64,000 bases of DNA, taken from assembly GCA_041495865.1 (NCBI GenBank), contig JBGQDL010000001.1, positions 4,330-68,329 on the forward strand. Direction: 5' to 3'. The stretch is from Thermoanaerobaculia bacterium. Its GTDB lineage: Bacteria > Acidobacteriota > Thermoanaerobaculia > UBA5066. The stretch's first letter is position 1. Each line of letters opens with the position of its first letter. Shown piece after piece: positions 10,717 to 30,367 of this stretch. The position numbers and the translations under genes were made by a program. Below the pieces are notes generated by a model. The model did no database searches, was not told where the DNA came from, and worked only from the letters and a program-made list of their open reading frames with translations.

Positions 10717-11432
10717 CCGAATACGCCGTCCGCTTCTCGAAGAGGCAGCGCTTCGAGCACGTGATCGTCATGACGACGTTCGTCCTCCTCGCGGTGACGG
10801 GCTTCCCGCAGAAGTTCTTCGAGACGGGGTGGGCCCGCGGGATCGTGCGCGTTCTCGGAGGCCTCGACCACGTGCGCATCATTCACCGCGCCTCGGGCAT
10901 CGTGTTCTCGCTGTTCACGATGTGGCATCTCGGCGTGGCCGTGATCCTCGCGGCCGAACGGAAGATGAAGCTCACGCTCCTGCCGAACCGCCAGGACTTC
11001 AAGGATGCCGTCCAGCAGCTCCGCTACGACCTCGGCCTCGTGGAGTCGCAGCCCGCGTTCGACCGGTTCGACTACCGGCAGAAGTTCGAGTACTGGGGGC
11101 TCGTCCTGGGCGGCCTCGTCATGATCTCGACGGGCCTCGTCCTGTACTTTCCCATGCTCGTGACGAAATTCCTGCCCGGCGAGCTCATCCCCGTCTCGAA
11201 GGTGGCGCACAGCAACGAGGGCCTCATGGCCTTCCTCGTCGTCATCACGTGGCACATCTACAACGCCCACCTCGCGCCGGGCATCTTCCCGTACGACTCG
11301 AGCATTTTCACCGGCAAGATCAGCAAGGAACGGCTCAGGCACGAGCACCCGCTCGAGTACGCGCGGCTCTACGGCGAGCCGGTCCACGGCGAGCCCGCGC
11401 ATCCCGTTCCGGAAACACCGCCGAAGCCGTGA
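10713..11432 (+). CDS. b-type cytochrome membrane subunit (prokaryotic cytochrome b561 / hydrogenase-formate dehydrogenase cytochrome b family)
   Basis: 4 predicted TM helices with conserved His ([48 protein letters not shown]); translationally coupled to the multiheme cytochrome. Confidence 0.75.
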
Positions 11433-13246
11433 ACCCCGAGACGCGTCCGCGCCTAGGGGTTCGGAATGCCCTGCAGGCGCGGGCGCTCCTGCTCGTCGCT
11501 CTCGGGCTTTTCGCACCTCTCGTCATCCTCGGCATCCTGAGCGCGAGCGCCCTCGACGATCTCTCCGCCCGCGTCGTCCACGATCAGCAGCTTCTCGCCC
11601 GCACCACCGTCGACCACGTCGAGGAGATCCTCCGCGACGACCTCGAAGGTCTCTACGGCGGCGGCGTCGAGCCCGACAGTCCCGCCCGCCGCGCCGCGCT
11701 CCTCGCCACCTATCGCCGCTCGCGCCTTTTTTCCAGCGTGTATCTCCTGAGCCCGCGCGGCGAGATCCTGTGGGAAGAGCCGGCGGGCGGGCATCGTGAC
11801 GACCGCCTCATCGCGATGCCGGCCGCGCAGGAGGCGATCGCGACCGGCCGGCGGGCCGCCTCGGCGCTGACGACGCTCGCGGGCGGCGCGCGCCGCCTTC
11901 TCCTCTTCGTCCCGCTCGTGGATCTCGACGGGAAGACCACGGGCATCGCGGGCGCGAGTCTCGATCCCTCGCGGCCGGCCTTCGCGAGCCTCCTGCCGGC
12001 GGTGCCGGTCGGCGAGGCGCACGCCCTCGATCTCGTCGACGCCGCGGGCGAGATCGTCGCCACGACGGACACGGGGCCCGCGCGGGCCGACCCCGTCGAC
12101 GCCGCCTTCCTCAGGCCGCTCCTCCTCGAGCGCCGGCCGTTCGCGGGCCGCGCCGGGAGCGACGTGGTCGCGTTCGCGCCGCTAAAGCTCTTTCCCTGGG
12201 GAGTCGTCGTGCGCGAACGGGCGGTCCACGCGTTCGCGCCCGCCTTCGCGTTCCGGCGGCGGATGCTCGCCCTGACGCCCGTCTTCCTCGCGCTCGCCGC
12301 GTTCTTCACGTGGGGTGCGGCGCGCAGCGTGCTGCGGCCCCTCCTCGTCCTCACGCGCGCCGCCGAACGCATCACGGGAGGCGACCTCGCGCGGCCCATT
12401 CCGCCGCTCCGTGACGACGAGGTCGGCCGGCTCGGTCGCTCGCTCGAGACGATGCGCGTGCGCCTCGGCGCGTCGCTCGACGAGATCCGAAGCGCGAACG
12501 AGCAGCTCGAGGCGCGCGTCGCCGCGCGCACGCAGGAGCTTCAACGTCTCTATGCCGAGCTGCGCGACCGCGACGAGAGGCGCGCCGAGCTGCTCAAGCG
12601 AATCCTGAGCGCGCAGGAGCGCGAGCGCATGCGCATCGCGCGCGAGCTCCACGACGAGACGTGCCAGACCATCGCGGCTCTGTCGTTTCGTCTCGAGAGC
12701 GCGCTCTCCGAGCTGCCCGAGAGCGGGACGCGCGCGCGCCTCGAAGAGGTGAAGGGCCTCGCGTGACGCGCCCTCGACGATCTGCACCGCGTCATCTTCG
12801 ACCTGCGTCCGTCGATCCTCGACGACCTCGGCCTTCTCGCGGCCGTGCGGTGGTACGCCGCGCGCCACATCGAGCCGTTCGGCATCGCCGTGAAGTGCGA
12901 GTTCGAGGACGTGGAGAACCGTGTCCCGCACGACGAGGCGACCGCCGTCTTTCGCATCGTGCAGGAAGCGCTCCTCAACGTGGCCCGCCACGCGGGGGCC
13001 GAGCACGTGCTCCTGCAGATCGCGGCCGACGAGAAGCGCCTCCTCATCGAGGTCGAGGACGACGGGCGGGGCTTCGACCCGAAAAGCGTGGAGCTGCCGT
13101 CCGAGACGGGGCGCGGTCTCGGCCTCCTCGGCATGCGCGAGCGCGTGGAGATCCTCGGGGGGAAGATGCACCTCGACGCCGCGCCCGGCGAAGGCGCGCA
13201 CCTCACGTTCGAAATCCCGATTCCGGAGGAGGCCGCTCATGGCTAG
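11429..13246 (+). pseudogene. NarX/LiaS-like sensor histidine kinase (2 TM, periplasmic sensor domain, HAMP, HisKA_3, HATPase_c) interrupted by an in-frame TGA at 12764-12766
   Basis: Frame from GTG 11429 (GTGA overlap with the cytochrome b stop) gives TM helix, periplasmic domain, TM2, HAMP ([26 protein letters not shown]) and H-box [18 protein letters not shown] at 12764 is followed in the same frame by RALDDLHRVIFDLRPSILDDLGL (canonical HisKA_3 continuation) and HATPase_c (GRGLGLLGMRERVEILGG). Either a nonsense mutation or a sequencing error. Confidence 0.6.
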
Positions 13247-13892
13247 GACGCGCATCGTCATCGCCGACGACCACGCCCTCATGCGCGAAGGCGTGCGGGC
13301 TCTCCTCCAGAAGGCCGAGGACATCGAGGTCGTCGGCGAGGCCGAGGACGGCCGCCAGGCCATCGACCGCTGCAAGGAGCTGGAGCCCGACGTCATCCTC
13401 CTCGACATCGCGATGCCGAATCTCGGCGGCCTCGAAGCCGCGCTCGAGATCCGCAAGGTCTGCCCACGCACGAAGATCATCGTGCTCACGCAATACGAGG
13501 ACCGCGAGTACGTCTCGCGCTTCCTCAAGATCGGCGTCTCCGGGTACATCCTGAAGAAGGCGGCGGGAGCGGAGCTGGCCTCCGCCATCCGCGGCGTCGT
13601 CCGCGGCGGCCTCGTGCTCGCTCCCGAGGTCGCGCGCGTCGCCCTCGAGGAGCGCGAAGCCGCGGCCGACGGCGCCGAGTCCGTCGATTCCTACGAGACG
13701 CTCACCGACCGCGAGAAGCAGGTCCTGAAGCTCGTCGCCGAGGGACACAGCAACAAGGAGATCGCCGAGCTGCTCGCGATCGGCGTGAAGACGGCGATGT
13801 CCCACCGGGAGCACGTCATGGGCAAGCTCGGCGTCCACGGGCGCACCGAGCTCATCCGATTTGCTCTCCGCCGCGGGATCATCCAGGCATGA
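13241..13892 (+). CDS. NarL/FixJ-family response regulator (REC plus LuxR-type HTH)
   Basis: RIVIADDHALMREG...DVILLDIAMPNLGG receiver domain; C-terminal LTDREKQVLKLVAEGHSNKEIAELLAIGVKT HTH; overlaps the kinase stop. Confidence 0.9.
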
Positions 13893-20951: not shown

Positions 20952-21841
20952 GGTTGCGCCGGCTCCCGCGCGCGCTCGACGAGAGAAGCGACCTCCGAGG
21001 CGTTCACCGTCTGGAGGTCATGCCGGTCCTTGAGAAGACAGCCGAGGGTCTGGAAAACGTCCTCCGGCTCCAGCGCTTCGCTTCGGAGAATCAGGAGCGC
21101 CCGCGTGAAGTCAAGCGTCTCGGCGACGCCCGGAGGCTTGACGAGCTGGCGCTGCCTGAGGGCCTGGAGAAACTGCCCGACCTCGCGCGCCAGGCGTTCC
21201 TGGACGATCGGGTAGCGCGTGCGGATGATCCGCACCTCCTTCTCGAGGCTGGGGTGCTCGATGTAGAGGTAGAGGCAGCGGCGGCGGAGCGCATCGCCCA
21301 GCTCCCGCGTACGGTTGGACGTGAGCACCACATGTGGCGAGTGGTCGGCGCGGATCGTCCCCAGCTCGGGGATCGTCACCTGAAAGTCCGAGAGCACCTC
21401 GAGCAGGAACGCTTCGAAGCCGTCGTCGGCCCTGTCCACCTCATCGATGAGCAGGACCGGCGGACCCGCGGTGCGCGTGATGGCCTTGAGGAGCGGCCGC
21501 TCGAGGAGGCAGTCGCGGCTGAACATCCGGGCCTCGAGATCCCCCGGGGCGTCGCCACGAGCTTCCGAGATCCGCAGCCTCAGGAGCTGCTTCGGATAGT
21601 CCCATTCGTAGAGCGCCGTCTGGACGTCCAGCCCCTCGTAGCACTGGAGGCGGATCAGCTCGGTGTCCAGCAAGCGGGCGAGGACCCTTGCCAGCTCGGT
21701 CTTTCCGACTCCGGCATCGCCCTCGATCAGGAGCGGCTTCTGCATCTCGCGGGCCAGGAACACCGCCGTCGCGATCGTCGGATCGGCGACGTAGCCCTGC
21801 CCCTCGAGGGCGACGAGCAGCTCCCCGATCTCGGGCCTCAC
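20948..21841 (-). CDS. coxD: CoxD, MoxR-like AAA+ ATPase
   Basis: Walker A GDAGVGKTELAR, Walker B VLLIDEVDRAD, sensor LTSNRTRELGDALRRRC; GTG start at 21841 overlapping the upstream stop (the track ORF is over-extended to 22267). Confidence 0.8.
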   Translation of the reverse strand: MRPEIGELLVALEGQGYVADPTIATAVFLAREMQKPLLIEGDAGVGKTELARVLARLLDTELIRLQCYEGLDVQTALYEWDYPKQLLRLRISEARGDAPGDLEARMFSRDCLLERPLLKAITRTAGPPVLLIDEVDRADDGFEAFLLEVLSDFQVTIPELGTIRADHSPHVVLTSNRTRELGDALRRRCLYLYIEHPSLEKEVRIIRTRYPIVQERLAREVGQFLQALRQRQLVKPPGVAETLDFTRALLILRSEALEPEDVFQTLGCLLKDRHDLQTVNASEVASLVERAREPAQP

Positions 21842-22782
21842 GGCTTCACGGCCCCGGCGAGGTAGCGCTCCGGCGCTGCCTGGAAGCGCTCGCGGCAGCC
21901 CGCGCAACAGAAGACATACTCTCGTTCCCCGTGTCGCGCGCGGTGCGCGGCCCCTTGGACGCGCACGGTCATTCCGCAGACCGGATCGAGCGCCTCCTCG
22001 GGAGGCGCCGACTCGGCGATTCGCGGGAGCGAGAGCGAGATCGCGCGCCGCTCCTTCACGATCTCGGCCAGGATGCTGACGGCGATCTCCTCGGGGAGGC
22101 GGGCGCCGAGATCGAGGCCGGCCGGGTTCTTGATCCGCGCGAGACTCGCCTCGGGCGCCTTGCGCGAAAGGACGGAGCGCATCTCGGCGAATCGCTTCGG
22201 GCTCGCCACGACGCCGAGGTAATCCGGCTTTTCTTCGAGGGCCGCCGCGGCCGCTTCCTCGTCCCACTCGCCCTGCGTCGCGACCACCGCGAAGACGGGG
22301 CCCCGCTGCGCGCTGGCATTCCCCGTGGACGGGCTCTCGGACACCGCCCCGCCGGTCATCTCCTCGATGGCGTGGACCGTGTACCCCATCGCCCGGCCCA
22401 GCGCCCAGAGGGCGCGGGCGATTGGGGAAGACCCGTAGACTATGAGGCGGGGCGCCGGCAGGACCGGCTGAATGAGGATCTCCACGCTTCCTCCGCTGTG
22501 GCAGGTCATCGGGAAGAACGAGACGCCCGGACGCCGCGGCGCATTGGGATCGGGATCGAGGGCCACGAGGCGGGGCTTGCCGTCTTCGAGAGCCTTGAGG
22601 GCCTCGGCGATCACGGTCGGGCGCGTGCAGCTCCCGCCGACCCAGCCGTGGAACGCGCCCTCGCCCGTCACGAGCGCCATGTCCCCGACCTGGGCCGAGA
22701 GCGGAGCCTTGCGGGCCACGACCGTTGCGACCGCGAATCGTTCTCCGCGTTTGCCGAACTCGGCAGCCAGCTCGAGAAGCTC
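21838..22782 (-). CDS. XdhC/CoxI-family molybdoenzyme maturation protein with C-terminal YHS (TRASH-like) metal-binding domain
   Basis: ATG at 22782 preceded by GGGAG; XdhC N-domain (MRLELLELAAEFGKRGERFAVATVV) and Rossmann-like C-domain; last 50 aa DPVCGMTVRVQGAAHRARHGEREYVFCCAGCRERFQAAPERYL = YHS domain consensus. Confidence 0.7.
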   Translation of the reverse strand, partial: ELLELAAEFGKRGERFAVATVVARKAPLSAQVGDMALVTGEGAFHGWVGGSCTRPTVIAEALKALEDGKPRLVALDPDPNAPRRPGVSFFPMTCHSGGSVEILIQPVLPAPRLIVYGSSPIARALWALGRAMGYTVHAIEEMTGGAVSESPSTGNASAQRGPVFAVVATQGEWDEEAAAAALEEKPDYLGVVASPKRFAEMRSVLSRKAPEASLARIKNPAGLDLGARLPEEIAVSILAEIVKERRAISLSLPRIAESAPPEEALDPVCGMTVRVQGAAHRARHGEREYVFCCAGCRERFQAAPERYLAGAVKP

Positions 22783-22795
22783 CAGGCGCATCTCT

Positions 22796-24929: not shown

Positions 24930-25114
24930 AAGGTTCCTTTGATAAACACCCGTCCGAAGGACGAGTGCGACTGAGCGATGGTGAGGAAAGTACGGGTAGG
25001 GTCGACGGGGACCTTTCGGTTCTCGGTCCGCTCCGTCAGGAGGAGAAAGGGCGAACAGAGGGAGTATAGCTCATTTCCGGCCGCTCCCAATAATCCGCGC
25101 TTCGTCGGGGGGCG

Positions 25115-25595
25115 GATGGCGGCTCTGGTCCTTCTCGTGAACGGGACGAAGCGGTCCGCGGAGGCGGACGCCGGCGAGTCCCTGCTCTCCGTGTTGCGCG
25201 ACCGCCTGGAGCTCACCGGCACGAAGTACGGCTGTGGCGAGGGACAGTGCGGGGCGTGCACCGTCCTCCTCGACGGCCGCCCCGCGCGCTCGTGCCTCAC
25301 CTCGGCCGCCGACGCCCCGGGAAAGAAGATCACGACCATCGAGGGGCTGGAGGCAAACGGCCGGCTTCACGCGGTACAGGAGGCATTCCTCAAGGAGGAG
25401 GCTTTCCAGTGCGGCTCCTGCACGTCGGGAATGATCCTCGCCGCTGTGGCCCTCCTCGACCGCCGCTCCGATCCCGCCGATGCCGAAATTGTCTCCGCGC
25501 TCACGCGAAGGACGGGAGAATCGTGGGCACGCCGGTCTCCAAGGTCGACGGGCGCGACTTCGTCACCGGCAGGCATCTCTACACCTCCGACCTAG
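25115..25595 (+). pseudogene. Truncated [2Fe-2S] small subunit of a xanthine-dehydrogenase-family (IorA-like) enzyme
   Basis: First cluster motif CGEGQCGACTV...RSC and first half of the second (FQCGSCTSG) are present, but the sequence after DAEIVSALT runs into junk with no GNLCRC-GY motif. The 3' end of the gene appears deleted and its frame overlaps the next gene. Confidence 0.5.
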
Positions 25596-26847
25596 CGCGC
25601 CCCGGCATGCTCCACGGCAAGGTCCTGCGGCCAGCCGCCTTCAAGGCGATGCTCGTCTCCGTCGATCTCGAGCCGGCGAGAAGGCTGCCCGGCGTCGTCG
25701 CGGTCCGCGACGGAGACTTCGTGGGGGTGGCCGCGCCCGACGTCGGCACCGCCGAGCGCGCGCTCGCCGCGATAGCCGCGCAATGGAAAGCCTTGCCGCA
25801 GCCGTCCGACAAGGAGCTGTGGGACGAGCTGAAGAAGCCTCCAGAAGCGGGCGAGCGCTCCGAGCCGCAGACGACCGGCAGCGTCGCGACGGCGCTCGCG
25901 GCGGCGGACATCAAACTCGAGTCGCGCTACACGGTCGCCTTCATCGCGCATGCTCCGCTCGAAACCCGCGCCGCCCTCGCCGCGTGGAAGAACGGCGCGC
26001 TCACGGTCTCCACCGGCACGCAGAGGCCCTTCGCCGTGCGCGACGAGCTGGCCGACGCCTTTCATCTCCCCACCGAGAAGGTGCGCGTCCTCGTGCCCGA
26101 CACGGGCTCGGCCTACGGCGGCAAGCACACGGGCGACGCCGCCCTCGAGGCCGCGCGCCTCGCGAAGGCCGCCGGCAAGCCCGTGAGGGTCGTCTGGACG
26201 CGCGAGGAAGAGTTCACCTGGGCGTACTTCCGCCCGGCGGGCGTCATCGAGGTGAAGAGCGGCGCCGGGCGGGACGGGAAGCTCGCGGCGTGGGAGTTCC
26301 ACAACTACAACTCCGGGCCGGCCGCGATCGCCGACCCGCGCCTGGCTGCGGTGTTCGAGGCGGCGGCGGCGAGGTTCGGTTGGGGGAAGCAGGAAGCCGG
26401 GCCGGGCCGCGGCTTCGGACTCGGCGGCGGGAAGGACAAGGGCGGCTACGTGGCGACGTGCGCCGAGATCGCGGTGGACGAAGCCCGCCGCGTGCGCATC
26501 GTGCGCGCCACCGTCGCGTTCGAATGCGGCGCCGTCGTGAACCCGAACGGCCTCAGGAACCAGATCGAGGGGGCCGTCGTGCAGGGTATCGGCGGCGCGC
26601 TTTTCGAGGCCGTGCGTTTTCGGACGGACACATCACCAATCCGCGTTTCTCCGCGTACCGCGTCCCGAGGTTCACCGACATGCCCGGGATCGACGTCGTC
26701 GTTCTCGACCGCAGGGATCTGCCTTCCGCCGGCGCGGGCGAGACGCCGATCGTCGGCCTCGCGCCCGCCGTCGGCAACGCGATCTTCGCCGCGACGGGAA
26801 CCCGGCTGCGCGCCCTGCCCCTCGCCCCGGAGGGAATTTCCGGCTGA
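25539..26847 (+). pseudogene. Remnant of an IorB-like molybdopterin-binding large subunit (about 436 codons instead of more than 700, plus a 1-nt frameshift)
   Basis: GTG 25539 with GGGAG RBS; a/b-hammerhead domain (VGTPVSKVDGRDFVTGRHLYTSDLARPGMLHGKVLRP) and first MoCo domain (PDTGSAYGGK), then a jump to the C-terminal RFGWG...GRGFGLGGG...NPNGLRNQIEGAVVQGIGGALFEAVRF. The frame then shifts by 1 nt in the TTTT run at 26617-26620 to DGHITNPRFSAYRVPRFTDMPGIDVVVL...PIVGLAPAVGNAIFAATGTRLRALPL. Confidence 0.5.
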
Positions 26848-26949
26848 CGTCCGGCCGCGCCAGTTGCCGCGGCTCATCGGGCGTCATAACCTCCGGCCGG
26901 TCTGGCGAAAAATGAAAAACGACCGCTCGGATTCGCCCGGGAGTGCACG

Positions 26950-28005
26950 ATGACCGCTCGAGTAGCCGCCTGGGCTGCGCCCTCGTCGAAGGCGCCGCTC
27001 CTTCCCCACGCGATCACGCGCCGCGAGCCGGGGCCGCGCGACGTCCAGATCGAGATCCTCTACTGCGGTGTCTGTCACTCCGACATTCACCAGGTCCGCG
27101 ACGAATGGGGCGGCTCGATCTTCCCGATGGTGCCGGGCCACGAGATCGTGGGCCGGGTGACGAAGGTCGGCGCGGGCGTCTCGAAGTTCGCCGCGGGAGA
27201 TCTGGCCGGCGTCGGGTGCTTCGTCGACTCGTGCCGCTCGTGCGACCCGTGCAAGCGCAACCTGGAGCAGTTCTGCCAGAAGGGGGCGGCCTTCACGTAC
27301 AACGGCACCGAGATGGACCGCAAGACGCCGACTTACGGCGGTTACTCGGTCGAGGTCGTCGTCGAAGAGAGGTACACGCTGAAGGTCCCGTCCGGCTTCG
27401 AGCTCGCGGCGGCGGCCCCGCTCCTCTGCGCCGGGATCACGACCTATTCGCCCCTAAGGCGGTGGAAATGCGCGCCAGGAAACCGCGTCGGGGTCGTCGG
27501 GCTCGGAGGCCTGGGCCACATGGCGGTGAAGCTGGCCGCCTCGATGGGGGCCGAGGTGACGATGCTCAGCACGTCTCGGGCCAAGGAGGCGGACGCGCGG
27601 AGGCTCGGTGCCCATGCCTTCGAGCTGACGAACGAGCCCAGGGCGCTCGAGAAGCTGGCCGGACGGTTCGACATCCTGATCGACACCGTCTCGGTCGATC
27701 ACGACCTCAACGCGCACCTCGCACTTCTCCGGCCGGAGGGGGCGATGGTCGTCCTCGGCGTCCCGCCGCATCCGGCGTCCGTCGCCGGCATGTCGCTGAT
27801 TTACGGCAGCAAGACGCTGGCCGGATCCATGATCGGCGGCATCGCCGAGACCCAGGAGATGCTGGACTACTGCGCGTCGAAGAAGATCGCCGCGGACGTC
27901 GAGGTGATCCCGATCCAGAAGATCAACGAGGCCTACGAGCGGATGCTCAGGAGCGACGTCCGCTACCGCTTCGTGATCGACATCGCGAGTTTGAAGGGGA
28001 GCTGA
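26950..28005 (+). CDS. Zinc-dependent NADP alcohol dehydrogenase (cinnamyl alcohol dehydrogenase / YahK family)
   Basis: GVCHSDIH catalytic Zn motif, structural Zn CxxCxxC (CRSCDPC), GLGGLGHMAV Rossmann motif. Confidence 0.85.
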   Translation: MTARVAAWAAPSSKAPLLPHAITRREPGPRDVQIEILYCGVCHSDIHQVRDEWGGSIFPMVPGHEIVGRVTKVGAGVSKFAAGDLAGVGCFVDSCRSCDPCKRNLEQFCQKGAAFTYNGTEMDRKTPTYGGYSVEVVVEERYTLKVPSGFELAAAAPLLCAGITTYSPLRRWKCAPGNRVGVVGLGGLGHMAVKLAASMGAEVTMLSTSRAKEADARRLGAHAFELTNEPRALEKLAGRFDILIDTVSVDHDLNAHLALLRPEGAMVVLGVPPHPASVAGMSLIYGSKTLAGSMIGGIAETQEMLDYCASKKIAADVEVIPIQKINEAYERMLRSDVRYRFVIDIASLKGS

Positions 28006-28009
28006 GCGC

Positions 28010-30367
28010 TCAGCCGGCGCCGTCGAGCACCTCACGCACCTTTCGGGCGAGGGTGAGCGGCGAGAACGGCTTCTGAAGAAACGCGACGCCCGATTCGACG
28101 ATGCCGTGGCGCACGACCGCGTCGTCCATGTAGCCGCTCATGTAGAGGATCCTCAAGCCGGGGTTGTCCTCCGTCGTGATCCGCTCCGCGAACTCGCGTC
28201 CGCTCATCTCGGGCATCACGACGTCCGTTACGACGATGTGGATCTCGCCGGCGTGCGTGCGGGCCGCCTCGAGCGCCTCGGTCCCGTTCCGGGCCTCGAT
28301 CACCCGATAGCCCGTCGACTCGAGCGCGATCTTCACGATGCGTCGGACCGCATCCTCGTCCTCGACGACGAGCACGGTCTCCGTCCCACGCGGGAGTGCC
28401 CCGTGCGTGCTGCTCGCGCCGCGCGTCCGCCGCGGCGACTCCTGCGACGGGAGGACGACCGTGAAGGTCGCGCCCCTCCCCGGCTCGCTCTCCACAGCGA
28501 TGTCGCCGCCGCTCTGCTTTACGATGCCGTAGACCGTCGCGAGGCCGAGGCCCGTACCCTTGCCGGCCACCTTCGTCGTGAAGAAAGGCTCGAAGAGGTG
28601 GGCCTTCACCTCAGGCGGGATGCCGCTTCCGGTGTCCGAGATCGAAATCACAACCCGCGGGCGCCGTGCTCGCTTCCCGGTCTCCTCGAGGTCGACGGAG
28701 GCCGCCGGGTCGACGCTCCGCGTGCGGATCGTGATGCGGCCTCCGCGCGGCATCGCATCGCGCGCGTTCACGACGAGGTTCATGACGACCTGCTCGAGCT
28801 GACCCGGGTCGACCTTCACCCAGCTGGGGTCGGCGGCCAGGTCGGTCTGCAGGTCCACGTCCTCGCCGATGAGTCGGCGGAGCATCTTTTCGATCCCGGT
28901 GACGACCTCGTGCACGTCGACGAGCCTCGGCTCGAGGATCTGCTTGCGGCTGAACGCAAGGAGCTGCCGCGTGAGCGAGGCGGCCCGCTCGCTCGCGGAC
29001 CGGATGTCCGCCAGGGAGCCGCGCCGCGGGTCGTCCGCGGGGGTGTCGGAAAGGAGCAGCTCGCAGTTCCCGGAGATGACCGTCAGGAGGTTGTTGAAGT
29101 CGTGGGCGACGCCGCCCGCCAGCTGCCCGACGGCCTCCATCTTCTGCGCCTGGCGGAGCTGCTCCTCGAGGCGCACGCGGGCCGTGGCGTCCCGGCCCGC
29201 GGTGTGCATCAACCGCTTGCCGCCGACGACGACTAGGCTGTTGTTGAACTCGACCGCCACTTTTCCGCCGTCCCTCCTCCGGATCGGCGCTTCCGACAGG
29301 ATCTGCTCGCCCTCCAGGATGCGGCGATGAAAGGCTCGGTACGCCGCGAGATCGGGATCGTCGTGGAGGTCGGGAATCGTCATCGCCAGCAGCTCTTCCC
29401 GGGAGAAGCCCGTCAGCTCCGTCGCCGCGCGGTTGACGGCGACGAAGCGTCCCTGCTCGTCGCTCAGGAACACGGCGTCCCGCGAGCCTTCGAAGATCTG
29501 GCGCTGCCATTGAAGCGCGTCTTCAAGCTCGGTGTTGAGTCTGACGACGTTCGCCTCCGTCTTCTTGCGCCCCGTGATGTCCTCGATCATCGCGACCGTC
29601 CGCGTCGGTTGCCCGGCCGCGTCGCGGAGGACGACCATGTTCACGTTCACCCAGGCGATCGAGCCGTCCTTGCGGATGTACCGCTTCTCGATCCGGTACT
29701 CCGGGGCTTCGCCTCTCACGACCTTCCGGAACAGCTCCCAGTCCCGGTCGCGGTCCTCCGGATGCGTGATCTCGGGGACCCGCATCGTGAGCAGCTCGTC
29801 TTCCGAGTAGCCCGTGATGACGCACATTCTCGGGTTCACGGCCACCCACCGCCCCGTCGCGGGGTCCGCCTGCGCGACTCCCACGGGCGCAACGTCGAAC
29901 ATGGCGTGGAACCGCTTCTCGCTGACGCGCAGGGCTTCTTCGGTGCGCTTGCGCTCGGTGACGTCGAAGAGGACGCCGAACCAGAGCGTGCTGCCGTCCG
30001 CCTCGCGGCGTCCGGCGCTGCGGCCCTCGACCCAGACCTCGCCGTGGGGGCTCCTCACGCGGAACTCACCATGCCAGGGCTCAAGCGTCCGGTGAGCCGC
30101 CAGAACTTCGTCGAGAAGAGACTTCCGGTCGTCCAGGTGCACGCGGGAAAACGCGGCGCCTCCGCGTTCGGCGACCTCGCCGAGCTGGACTCCGAAAAGG
30201 TCCTGGAAGCCGGAGGAGACGATGGGAAACTGGTACGTGCCGTCGGGCCGGACCCGGAATTGGTAGATCACGAAGGGTGCGTTCGGGGCGATTTCGGCGA
30301 AGGCCCTTCCGAGCGCGGCGTCGGCCGACGAAAACCCAACGTCGCGCGACCCCGCTACGCGGTCCAT
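28010..30367 (-). CDS. Hybrid sensor histidine kinase (three PAS domains, HisKA, HATPase_c, C-terminal REC)
   Basis: H-box AHDFNNLLTVISG, N/G boxes (NLVVNARDAM, DTGSGIP, GTGLGLATVYG), C-terminal receiver VLVVEDEDAVRR...DVVMPEMSG. Confidence 0.85.
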   Translation of the reverse strand: MDRVAGSRDVGFSSADAALGRAFAEIAPNAPFVIYQFRVRPDGTYQFPIVSSGFQDLFGVQLGEVAERGGAAFSRVHLDDRKSLLDEVLAAHRTLEPWHGEFRVRSPHGEVWVEGRSAGRREADGSTLWFGVLFDVTERKRTEEALRVSEKRFHAMFDVAPVGVAQADPATGRWVAVNPRMCVITGYSEDELLTMRVPEITHPEDRDRDWELFRKVVRGEAPEYRIEKRYIRKDGSIAWVNVNMVVLRDAAGQPTRTVAMIEDITGRKKTEANVVRLNTELEDALQWQRQIFEGSRDAVFLSDEQGRFVAVNRAATELTGFSREELLAMTIPDLHDDPDLAAYRAFHRRILEGEQILSEAPIRRRDGGKVAVEFNNSLVVVGGKRLMHTAGRDATARVRLEEQLRQAQKMEAVGQLAGGVAHDFNNLLTVISGNCELLLSDTPADDPRRGSLADIRSASERAASLTRQLLAFSRKQILEPRLVDVHEVVTGIEKMLRRLIGEDVDLQTDLAADPSWVKVDPGQLEQVVMNLVVNARDAMPRGGRITIRTRSVDPAASVDLEETGKRARRPRVVISISDTGSGIPPEVKAHLFEPFFTTKVAGKGTGLGLATVYGIVKQSGGDIAVESEPGRGATFTVVLPSQESPRRTRGASSTHGALPRGTETVLVVEDEDAVRRIVKIALESTGYRVIEARNGTEALEAARTHAGEIHIVVTDVVMPEMSGREFAERITTEDNPGLRILYMSGYMDDAVVRHGIVESGVAFLQKPFSPLTLARKVREVLDGAG

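Follow-up and report, generated by a model that had tools for sequence, protein, structure and literature searches.

Background

A large part of the CO that microbes take up from the atmosphere and the oceans is consumed by aerobic carbon monoxide dehydrogenase (CODH). To our knowledge, the only model of copper insertion into this enzyme combines mutants of Oligotropha (Afipia) carboxidovorans with weak motifs in its CoxF, a protein without recognisable metal-binding domain. Plasmid pHCG3 of strain OM5 has genes for two XdhC homologues, CoxF with 280 aa and CoxI with 335 aa. The coxE and coxF mutants formed CODH that was fully assembled and contained Mo as well as sulfane sulfur, but no Cu (PMC4240915). 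From this Cu-free enzyme CoxF was proposed to be the copper supplier, a proposal that relied on short motifs in the protein, namely a 'phytase' signature and the proposed Cu site M107CPSHGTM (PMC4240915). CoxF groups with the XdhC homologues of CODH operons and CoxI resembles PaoD (PMC2997495), and XdhC proteins have been linked to the sulfuration and the protection of the sulfurated molybdenum cofactor (Moco; PMC4240915; PMC2997495). The present analysis concerns a coxF-type gene from a Thermoanaerobaculia bacterium, the product of which carries a YHS domain at its C-terminus. The gene lies in a stretch of 64,000 nucleotides (contig JBGQDL010000001.1, positions 4,330 to 68,329), which is referred to as the window and to the numbering of which all window coordinates refer. 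The fused form is the commonest CoxF in the family sampled here and is not peculiar to the genome of the window.

Gene structure and domain architecture

The coxF-type gene (coxF-YHS; 22791-21838, minus strand) encodes a protein of 317 aa. An initial annotation, made from the letters of the window, had placed it at 21838-22782; translation of that interval on the minus strand reproduced the C-terminus DPVCGMTVRVQGAAHRARHGEREYVFCCAGCRERFQAAPERYL, while the start had to be moved, since the complete open reading frame (ORF) begins three codons further upstream with an ATG at 22791 (MRLELL...). The stop codon TGA (21840-21838) is overlapped by the GTG start of coxD (GTGA), and a gap of 4 bp separates the ATG from the stop codon of the preceding MocA-like gene, so that the coupling of coxF-YHS is tight on either side. 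An identical gene call of 317 aa, flanked by the same genes, is present in three independent public assemblies. None of the ORFs overlapping the gene on the opposite strand or in other frames had a Pfam match, and those on the plus strand were for this reason rejected as real genes.

Two domains make up the XdhC core of the protein. The N-terminal XdhC_CoxI domain (PF02625; residues 14-77, 22752-22561, minus strand), which includes the motif GGSC55, scored 58.2 bits against a Pfam cut-off of 24.3, and the Rossmann-like XdhC_C domain (PF13478; residues 116-244, 22446-22060, minus strand) 91 bits against 29.7. The latter is preceded by a PMTC97HS motif (about 22512-22495, minus strand). A variable linker of low conservation (residues 250-268, 22044-21988, minus strand) leads from the core to the YHS/TRASH domain (PF04945; residues 269-312, 21987-21856, minus strand). 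The initial annotation had recognised this domain by its consensus, and the assignment is borne out by the Pfam search (YHS, E 5.7e-9, 36.3 bits versus a cut-off of 30.3; TRASH_HVO_1752_C, 31.8 versus 27 bits). No match to the HMA domain was obtained with Pfam. The protein thus stands outside the family of HMA copper chaperones (CopZ/Atx1 type), though it may work like such a chaperone. In NCBIfam, which holds no CoxF-specific model, only sub-threshold matches to XdhC equivalogs were found, all far below the cut-offs.

Identification as CoxF

In BLASTP comparisons with the two pHCG3 proteins, the YHS-bearing protein matched CoxF with 115 bits (34 % identity across the whole XdhC core) and CoxI with 59 bits. 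The other XdhC paralogue of the window (24485-23397, minus strand), a CoxI-type protein composed of XdhC_CoxI and XdhC_C only by Pfam, was closer to CoxI (78.6 bits) than to CoxF (57 bits). This reciprocal comparison, the translational coupling to coxD and the published grouping of CoxF (PMC2997495) identify the YHS-bearing protein, on the strength of its similarities, as the orthologue of CoxF and not of CoxI. CoxF is a CODH-specific branch of the XdhC family. The name of a MoCo-insertion chaperone, under which the protein had initially been described, is therefore wrong, because CoxF of O. carboxidovorans serves the copper step and not the insertion of Moco (PMC4240915). Chaperones of the XdhC (R. 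capsulatus), PaoD and CoxI type share the same two Pfam domains and the fold with the window protein, but they bind sulfurated Moco and insert it into copper-free enzymes.

CoxF of O. carboxidovorans is likewise a CODH-specific XdhC homologue; its gene shares a form I cluster with coxD and coxE, and the protein has the GGxC and M-x-C-x-S motifs in common with the window protein. It differs in ending about 14 residues after the Rossmann domain, without YHS, HMA or Cys tail. Its gene stands in the order coxMSLDEFG, as opposed to coxI-mocA-coxF-D-E-G-M-S-L in the window. The motif M107CPSHGTM aligns with PMTC97HS of the window protein. As the cysteine of this motif is also present in CoxI-type paralogues, it is a mark of the XdhC family rather than of copper binding. 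Among 206 orthologues, both core cysteines are almost invariant, C55 being kept in 205 and C97 in all 206.

Conservation and predicted structure of the YHS domain

The cysteine spacing of the window YHS domain, C272-X22-C295-X3-C299, corresponds to the TRASH pattern. One Asp and three Cys form the proposed metal site of YHS/TRASH domains (PMC4626032), and the pattern D-x2-C-X19-22-C-X3-C is satisfied by D269, C272 (21978-21976), C295 (21909-21907) and C299 (21897-21895, all minus strand), which are the putative ligands. In the 206 orthologues D269 is kept in 201, C272 and C295 in 203 each and C299 in 204 sequences, and the C-X22-C-X3-C spacing in 198. The conservation of the cysteines expected by the initial annotation thus holds for the three TRASH cysteines, but not for the second cysteine of the 'CC' doublet: C296 occurs in only 130 of the 206 orthologues, and the doublet was consequently rejected as a family-specific fourth Cys ligand. 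H283 is found in 154 and H287 in 148 of these sequences. From this ligand set we infer that the YHS module would bind one soft metal ion, most likely Cu(I), via D269, C272, C295 and C299. A degenerate YHS domain was observed in CoxF of plasmid p380k of Deinococcus sp. AJ005 (L003:10001-11062), in which the first Cys has given way to another residue (SPVDGEE) and YFTCANC stands as the second motif.

Across 203 orthologues the linker comprises 12-85 residues (median 20) and is poorly conserved; such a variable connection fits a carrier domain that may be tethered to the core. An AlphaFold2 (AF2) model calculated from an 84-sequence alignment reached a mean pLDDT (predicted local distance difference test) of 88.9, with values of 89-96 for the YHS segment and 75-82 for the linker; core and YHS domain are both confidently folded in the prediction. 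Foldseek with the whole model retrieved only the XdhC fold, with 2we8/2we7 (Rv0376c homologue) and 3on5 as top entries of the PDB (probability 1.00). The best PDB match by sequence was 2we7 with 46 bits, and no solved structure of a CoxF-type protein was found in the PDB.

Association with form I CODH

The large subunit encoded in the window (coxL, 17806-15434, minus strand) contains the active-site loop AYRCSFR of form I Mo-Cu CODH at residue 372, passes the NCBIfam equivalog TIGR02416 of the aerobic CODH large subunit (1260.9 bits, cut-off 991) and is the presumed recipient of the copper. With coxM, coxS, coxG, coxE and coxD present as well, coxF-YHS was correctly described at the outset as the second of two XdhC paralogues in a form I Mo-Cu CODH cluster.

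The best 120 matches to the protein among 5.8 billion sequence clusters were all members of the XdhC family (55-100 % identity) and bear no more specific names than 'XdhC family protein' or 'xanthine dehydrogenase accessory factor'. The full architecture of XdhC_CoxI, XdhC_C and YHS was present in 118 of them, the other two (P0005, P0070) being partial sequences. A scan of the species-representative genomes of GTDB yielded the top 80 matches to the query, every one of them a fused locus. They belong to Acidobacteriota, Gemmatimonadota, Myxococcota, Methylomirabilota/Rokubacteria, Chloroflexota, Deinococcota, Actinomycetes and Pseudomonadota, and furthermore to one Cytophagia-labelled and two Thaumarchaeota-labelled metagenome-assembled genomes (MAGs). 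On complete replicons, the fusion was found in Thermomicrobium roseum, Deinococcus sp. AJ005, the haloarchaeon Natronorubrum bangense and Paraburkholderia aromaticivorans, in all four cases adjoining an annotated 'aerobic carbon-monoxide dehydrogenase large subunit'. The 84 fused loci span about ten phyla including Archaea.

The co-occurrence with form I coxL that had been anticipated for the fusion was observed throughout this set. Sixty-four of the 84 loci contain a form I CoxL with the loop (A/T/S)YRCSFR and at least 58 % identity to CoxL of the window, nine a form-I-like fragment of CoxL that is truncated where the contig ends, and ten other cox genes with a contig end at the expected place of coxL; one locus was uninformative, with only 105 bp upstream. 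A non-CODH context was encountered in none of these 84 query-similar loci. Every YHS match in them falls inside the coxF ORF, and the CoxI-type paralogues, unlike CoxF, carry no YHS domain either in the window or in the 24 copies co-resident in the same loci.

Since the GTDB loci are only the matches most similar to the query, the fused fraction of form I clusters was taken from PLSDB. Nineteen PLSDB records with a form I CoxL of at least 57.9 % identity were obtained, the next best match being at 43 %. CoxF is YHS-fused in six of these records and unfused in 13, which comprise twelve from Alphaproteobacteria and one from Nonomuraea. Conversely, all six XdhC-YHS genes in PLSDB reside in form I CoxL records, and in none of the 107 other records with XdhC-family matches did a match reach into the YHS region. 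A separate YHS gene as a possible substitute near the tail-less CoxF was sought in O. carboxidovorans and Nonomuraea and rejected, as no YHS match occurs within about 9-10 kb on each side.

In a wider search, 442 family representatives were retrieved at E <= 1e-30 among 1.84 billion cluster representatives. About 126 of the best 150 of them carry YHS, the tails having been typed with local hidden Markov models (HMMs) built from the orthologue alignment. The fractions of the tail types rest on these 150 representatives and the 19 PLSDB records, and the sample favours proteins orthologous to the query. Outside Alphaproteobacteria the usual CoxF is the fused one, and CoxF of O. carboxidovorans is a tail-less variant.

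Among the 64 loci with complete CoxL, coxD and coxE are absent from the fetched flanks in 31, and in 31 coxF-YHS starts less than 300 bp after coxL, by which it is the accessory gene most tightly linked to coxMSL. Examples from this set (L006-L085) are L036, L047, L051, L055, L059, L073, L075 and L076, to which L002 (T. roseum) is added. Triple fusions of MocA, CoxF and YHS were observed in P0181, P0183, P0234 and P0208, and a CoxF-MocA fusion in P0167. In three Myxococcota (L017, L018, L023) a form II (AYRGAGR) CoxSLM-type cluster is arranged divergently beside a mocA-coxF(YHS)-coxG-coxM form I cluster; in L017 and L023 the form II cluster has its own CoxD and CoxE, and the YHS-bearing CoxF stands on the form I side. 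Form I cox genes with CoxF-YHS also occur in the Thaumarchaeota-labelled MAG L063 and the Nitrosotalea-labelled MAG L073, both assigned to ammonia-oxidising archaea. CoxL of L073 is 83 % identical to the acidobacterial-like CoxL of the window, which suggests a binning error or recent transfer, and the Thaumarchaeota-labelled contigs may be binning errors.

Copper-related YHS domains and alternative tails

When the YHS segment was compared with plasmid sequences, its closest relatives outside CoxF were the YHS domains of heavy-metal P-type ATPases, with up to 57 % identity over 49 residues (E 1e-10) and the common signature DPVCGM...FC..C..F...P. The YHS domain of the Ag+ pump SilP, a P1B-type Cu+/Ag+ ATPase, is about 42 % identical to the window segment. 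These domains reside on a membrane pump and not on a cofactor chaperone, and their metal binding is putative (PMC4626032). In vitro, silver can take the place of copper in CODH (PMC4240915). A further parallel is offered by a class III adenylyl cyclase of Mycobacterium phlei, in which a C-terminal YHS domain follows the enzymatic domain on a short linker and confers Cu-specific activation, with one Asp and three Cys proposed as ligands (PMC4626032). There the YHS domain acts as a sensor that switches catalysis, as opposed to the metal donor proposed for the window protein. In a form I cluster of Parageobacillus, the cytochrome-oxidase copper chaperone CtaG is encoded according to the annotation of the respective paper.

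In other CoxF proteins, which are exceptions among the best 150 representatives, the YHS domain is replaced by different Cys-based modules. Rhodothermus marinus P0172 (L090:8001-9038, AP019797.1) encodes a CoxF with XdhC_CoxI, XdhC_C and HMA (40.9 bits) within a coxM-S-L(AYRCSFR)-G-D-E-F-mocA form I cluster. Its core is 47 % identical to the window protein, it occupies the same position in the form I cluster, and its appendage likewise follows C-terminally after a linker; the ferredoxin-like HMA domain with the loop GMSCAHC, in contrast, is an analogous, non-homologous replacement of YHS. The motif M[ST]CxxC is kept in all 39 CoxF-HMA sequences (P0172, P0271-P0304 and others), the cores of which have YHS-bearing CoxF proteins as nearest relatives. 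An HMA domain was met in CoxF relatives of this Rhodothermus type only.

Other CoxF proteins without YHS or HMA end in Cys-Cys tails, such as ...SSCCQGE, ...GHCCHD, ...KKSCCAS and ...HSCCQGS, with form I CoxL immediately before them or in the vicinity (P0196, L092:1133-2029; P0211, L093:563-1390; P0255, L094:342-1289; P0178, L095:8001-8870). The Cys-Cys tail may represent a third type of metal-binding tail. P0231, P0267 and P0248 are further examples of CoxF with a Cys-Cys tail. The occurrence of YHS, HMA and Cys-Cys, all of them rich in thiolates and suited to soft metals, at the same position of CoxF is hard to explain by a docking role and fits a carrier of Cu(I).

Proposed function and alternative explanations

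The specificity for CODH, the conservation of the ligands, the kinship with ATPase YHS domains and the exchange for HMA or Cys-Cys tails all argue for the initial suggestion that the fused YHS is a candidate module for copper delivery. A CoxF core with flexible linker and YHS tail that supplies Cu(I) to form I CODH is in our judgement the best explanation of these findings and probably the correct one, with appreciable room left for others. According to this proposal, apo-CODH would be assembled with the molybdopterin cytosine dinucleotide (MCD) form of the Mo cofactor already in place, as shown elsewhere; sulfuration of Mo would require CoxD, as shown in O. carboxidovorans, and the enzyme would at this stage be devoid of Cu, as is CODH of the coxE and coxF mutants of that organism. 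The XdhC core of CoxF would dock on CoxL or on the sulfurated MCD cofactor, and the tethered YHS domain would take up Cu(I) and pass it to the Mo-SH/Cys388 site, thereby completing the [CuSMoO2] cluster, possibly with assistance of CoxD and CoxE in Cu(I) delivery. A variant would assign CoxF-YHS the role of a scaffold on which the whole Mo-S-Cu MCD cofactor is pre-assembled before being loaded or exchanged into CoxL. Here the XdhC core could hold the sulfurated Moco while the tethered YHS domain inserts Cu(I). Such a scaffold would explain the lineages with coxMSL and coxF-YHS only as well as the MocA-CoxF-YHS triple fusions; we nevertheless consider it distinctly unlikely.

Several points weigh against delivery of Cu(I) by the tail, beginning with the fact that binding and transfer of a metal by CoxF-YHS proteins are themselves inferred. 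Tail-less CoxF proteins are functional in the 12 alphaproteobacterial records, including O. carboxidovorans, and in Nonomuraea, so that the YHS domain is dispensable in some lineages. With the first Cys lost in CoxF of Deinococcus sp. AJ005, the metal site may be lost or altered there. The GTDB sample consists of query-similar loci, and more distant fusions of XdhC with YHS may have escaped it in other contexts. The TRASH domain of ribosomal L24e binds structural Zn/Cd and the YHS domain of toluene-4-monooxygenase is metal-free (PMC4626032), and the YHS segment has a single, weak match by sequence in the PDB, which falls on the C-terminal region of the alpha-subunit of phenol hydroxylase (E 0.4). 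The latter observations, like the tail-less Alphaproteobacteria, would also be expected if YHS were a structural, zinc-ribbon-like module for docking to CoxL, CoxD or CoxE or for dimerisation, with no part in copper delivery. Such a module is unlikely in view of its replacement at the same position by HMA with the canonical Cu(I) loop M[ST]CxxC or by Cys-Cys tails, neither of which is a YHS-related docking fold, and of the closest YHS relatives in Cu+/Ag+ ATPases.

Alternatively, the YHS domain might be a copper sensor that switches the CoxF core on, the copper of CoxL arriving by another route. The M. phlei cyclase, the only biochemically studied C-terminal YHS fusion, contains precisely such a Cu-specific activation module (PMC4626032), and with its C-terminal YHS on a short linker the window protein has a similar architecture; sequence alone does not separate sensing from delivery. 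A sensor appears improbable, since most fused clusters do not encode a separate copper donor, the 84 loci contain no other YHS match, many clusters consist of coxMSL and coxF-YHS only, and HMA and Cys-Cys tails are typical of carriers. A metal-free role as persulfide relay for the Mo-S ligand, or in the protection of the sulfurated cofactor, would agree with the Cys-based nature of the YHS domain and with the ties of XdhC proteins to the sulfuration and protection of sulfurated Moco (PMC4240915; PMC2997495). We regard it as very unlikely, as CODH of the O. carboxidovorans coxF mutant retains stoichiometric sulfane sulfur and is devoid of Cu only (PMC4240915), YHS and HMA are metal-binding folds, and D269 is conserved as fourth ligand. 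The chance that the fusion is an artefact, i.e. a chance motif, a frameshift or the joining of a small YHS gene to xdhC during assembly, is negligible. The high GC content of the genome and its many spurious ORFs were the reason to consider it, and no support for it was found: the same continuous ORF recurs in the three independent assemblies, in complete genomes (T. roseum) and in the 80 GTDB species-representative genomes, the HMM score exceeds the cut-off, the overlapping ORFs are without Pfam match, and domain and cysteines are present in more than 200 orthologues.

Implications

No paper that describes the XdhC-YHS fusion or employs it to interpret CoxF was found in a search outside of which most subscription journals lay, and those CoxF papers since 2015 that were found mention no metal-binding domain. 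The architecture can be seen in precomputed Pfam annotations, and NCBI has given one of the proteins the name 'YHS domain-containing protein'. CoxF, XdhC and YHS are each known. The fusion is rated as a widespread, predominant and apparently undescribed variant of a known maturation factor, because of the lack of such a paper, of an NCBIfam model for CoxF and of a CoxF-type structure.

In most other lineages CoxF thus bears a Cys-based module, which is YHS or, in some of them, HMA or Cys-Cys. These fused modules provide independent support of the 'Rosetta stone' kind for CoxF as a copper-handling factor, and make the motif-based hypothesis of copper insertion directly testable at D269, C272, C295 and C299. 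Cultured organisms with a tailed CoxF include Thermomicrobium roseum (WP_143714800.1), Paraburkholderia aromaticivorans (WP_035477365.1), Rhodothermus marinus and Natronorubrum bangense. Maturation has been limiting in attempts to produce active Mo-Cu CODH heterologously, and a tailed CoxF may be of help there. A heterologous cox system exists in Ralstonia eutropha (PMC6011924).

Genomic neighbourhood

Along the minus strand the operon reads RRM, first XdhC paralogue, MocA, coxF-YHS, coxD, coxE, coxG, coxM, coxS and coxL. The RRM protein is encoded at 24929-24642, and the MocA-like nucleotidyltransferase (for the MCD form of Moco) at 23410-22796 (Pfam NTP_transf_3, 122.7 bits). Downstream of coxF-YHS follow coxD for a MoxR-type AAA+ ATPase (21841-20948; 297-aa public gene call; Pfam AAA_5/AAA), the product of which is 56 % identical to CoxD of pHCG3, coxE for a VWA protein (20951-19821; VWA_CoxE, 173 bits) and coxG for an SRPBCC/COXG protein (19819-19187; COXG, 71 bits). 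The FAD subunit is encoded by coxM (19158-18289; FAD_binding_5 and CO_deh_flav_C) and the [2Fe-2S] subunit by coxS (18286-17816; Fer2_2), all on the minus strand. The best NCBIfam matches of CoxD and CoxE were the sub-threshold models 'MadB family AAA-type ATPase' (258.9 bits, cut-off 475) and 'MadC family VWA', respectively; NCBIfam contains no dedicated CoxD or CoxE model.

Divergently from the cox operon, a second [2Fe-2S] small-subunit-like gene (24978-25595, plus strand; Fer2 and Fer2_2) was detected. It is followed by a 453-aa ORF (25592-26953, plus strand) with only partial matches to MoCoBD_1 and MoCoBD_2, much shorter than the usual large subunit of molybdenum hydroxylases. This ORF may represent a truncated gene or a pseudogene, or else a split form of an unusual kind. 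The next gene (26950-28005) encodes a zinc-type alcohol dehydrogenase. The cox region is surrounded by signalling genes (28010-30367, minus strand; 10829-12766 and 12921-13892, plus strand), the types represented being two histidine kinases, one of them a PAS hybrid that has a receiver domain and the other of the Cache/HAMP kind, and a response regulator of LuxR type; these are possible candidates for regulators of the cox cluster.

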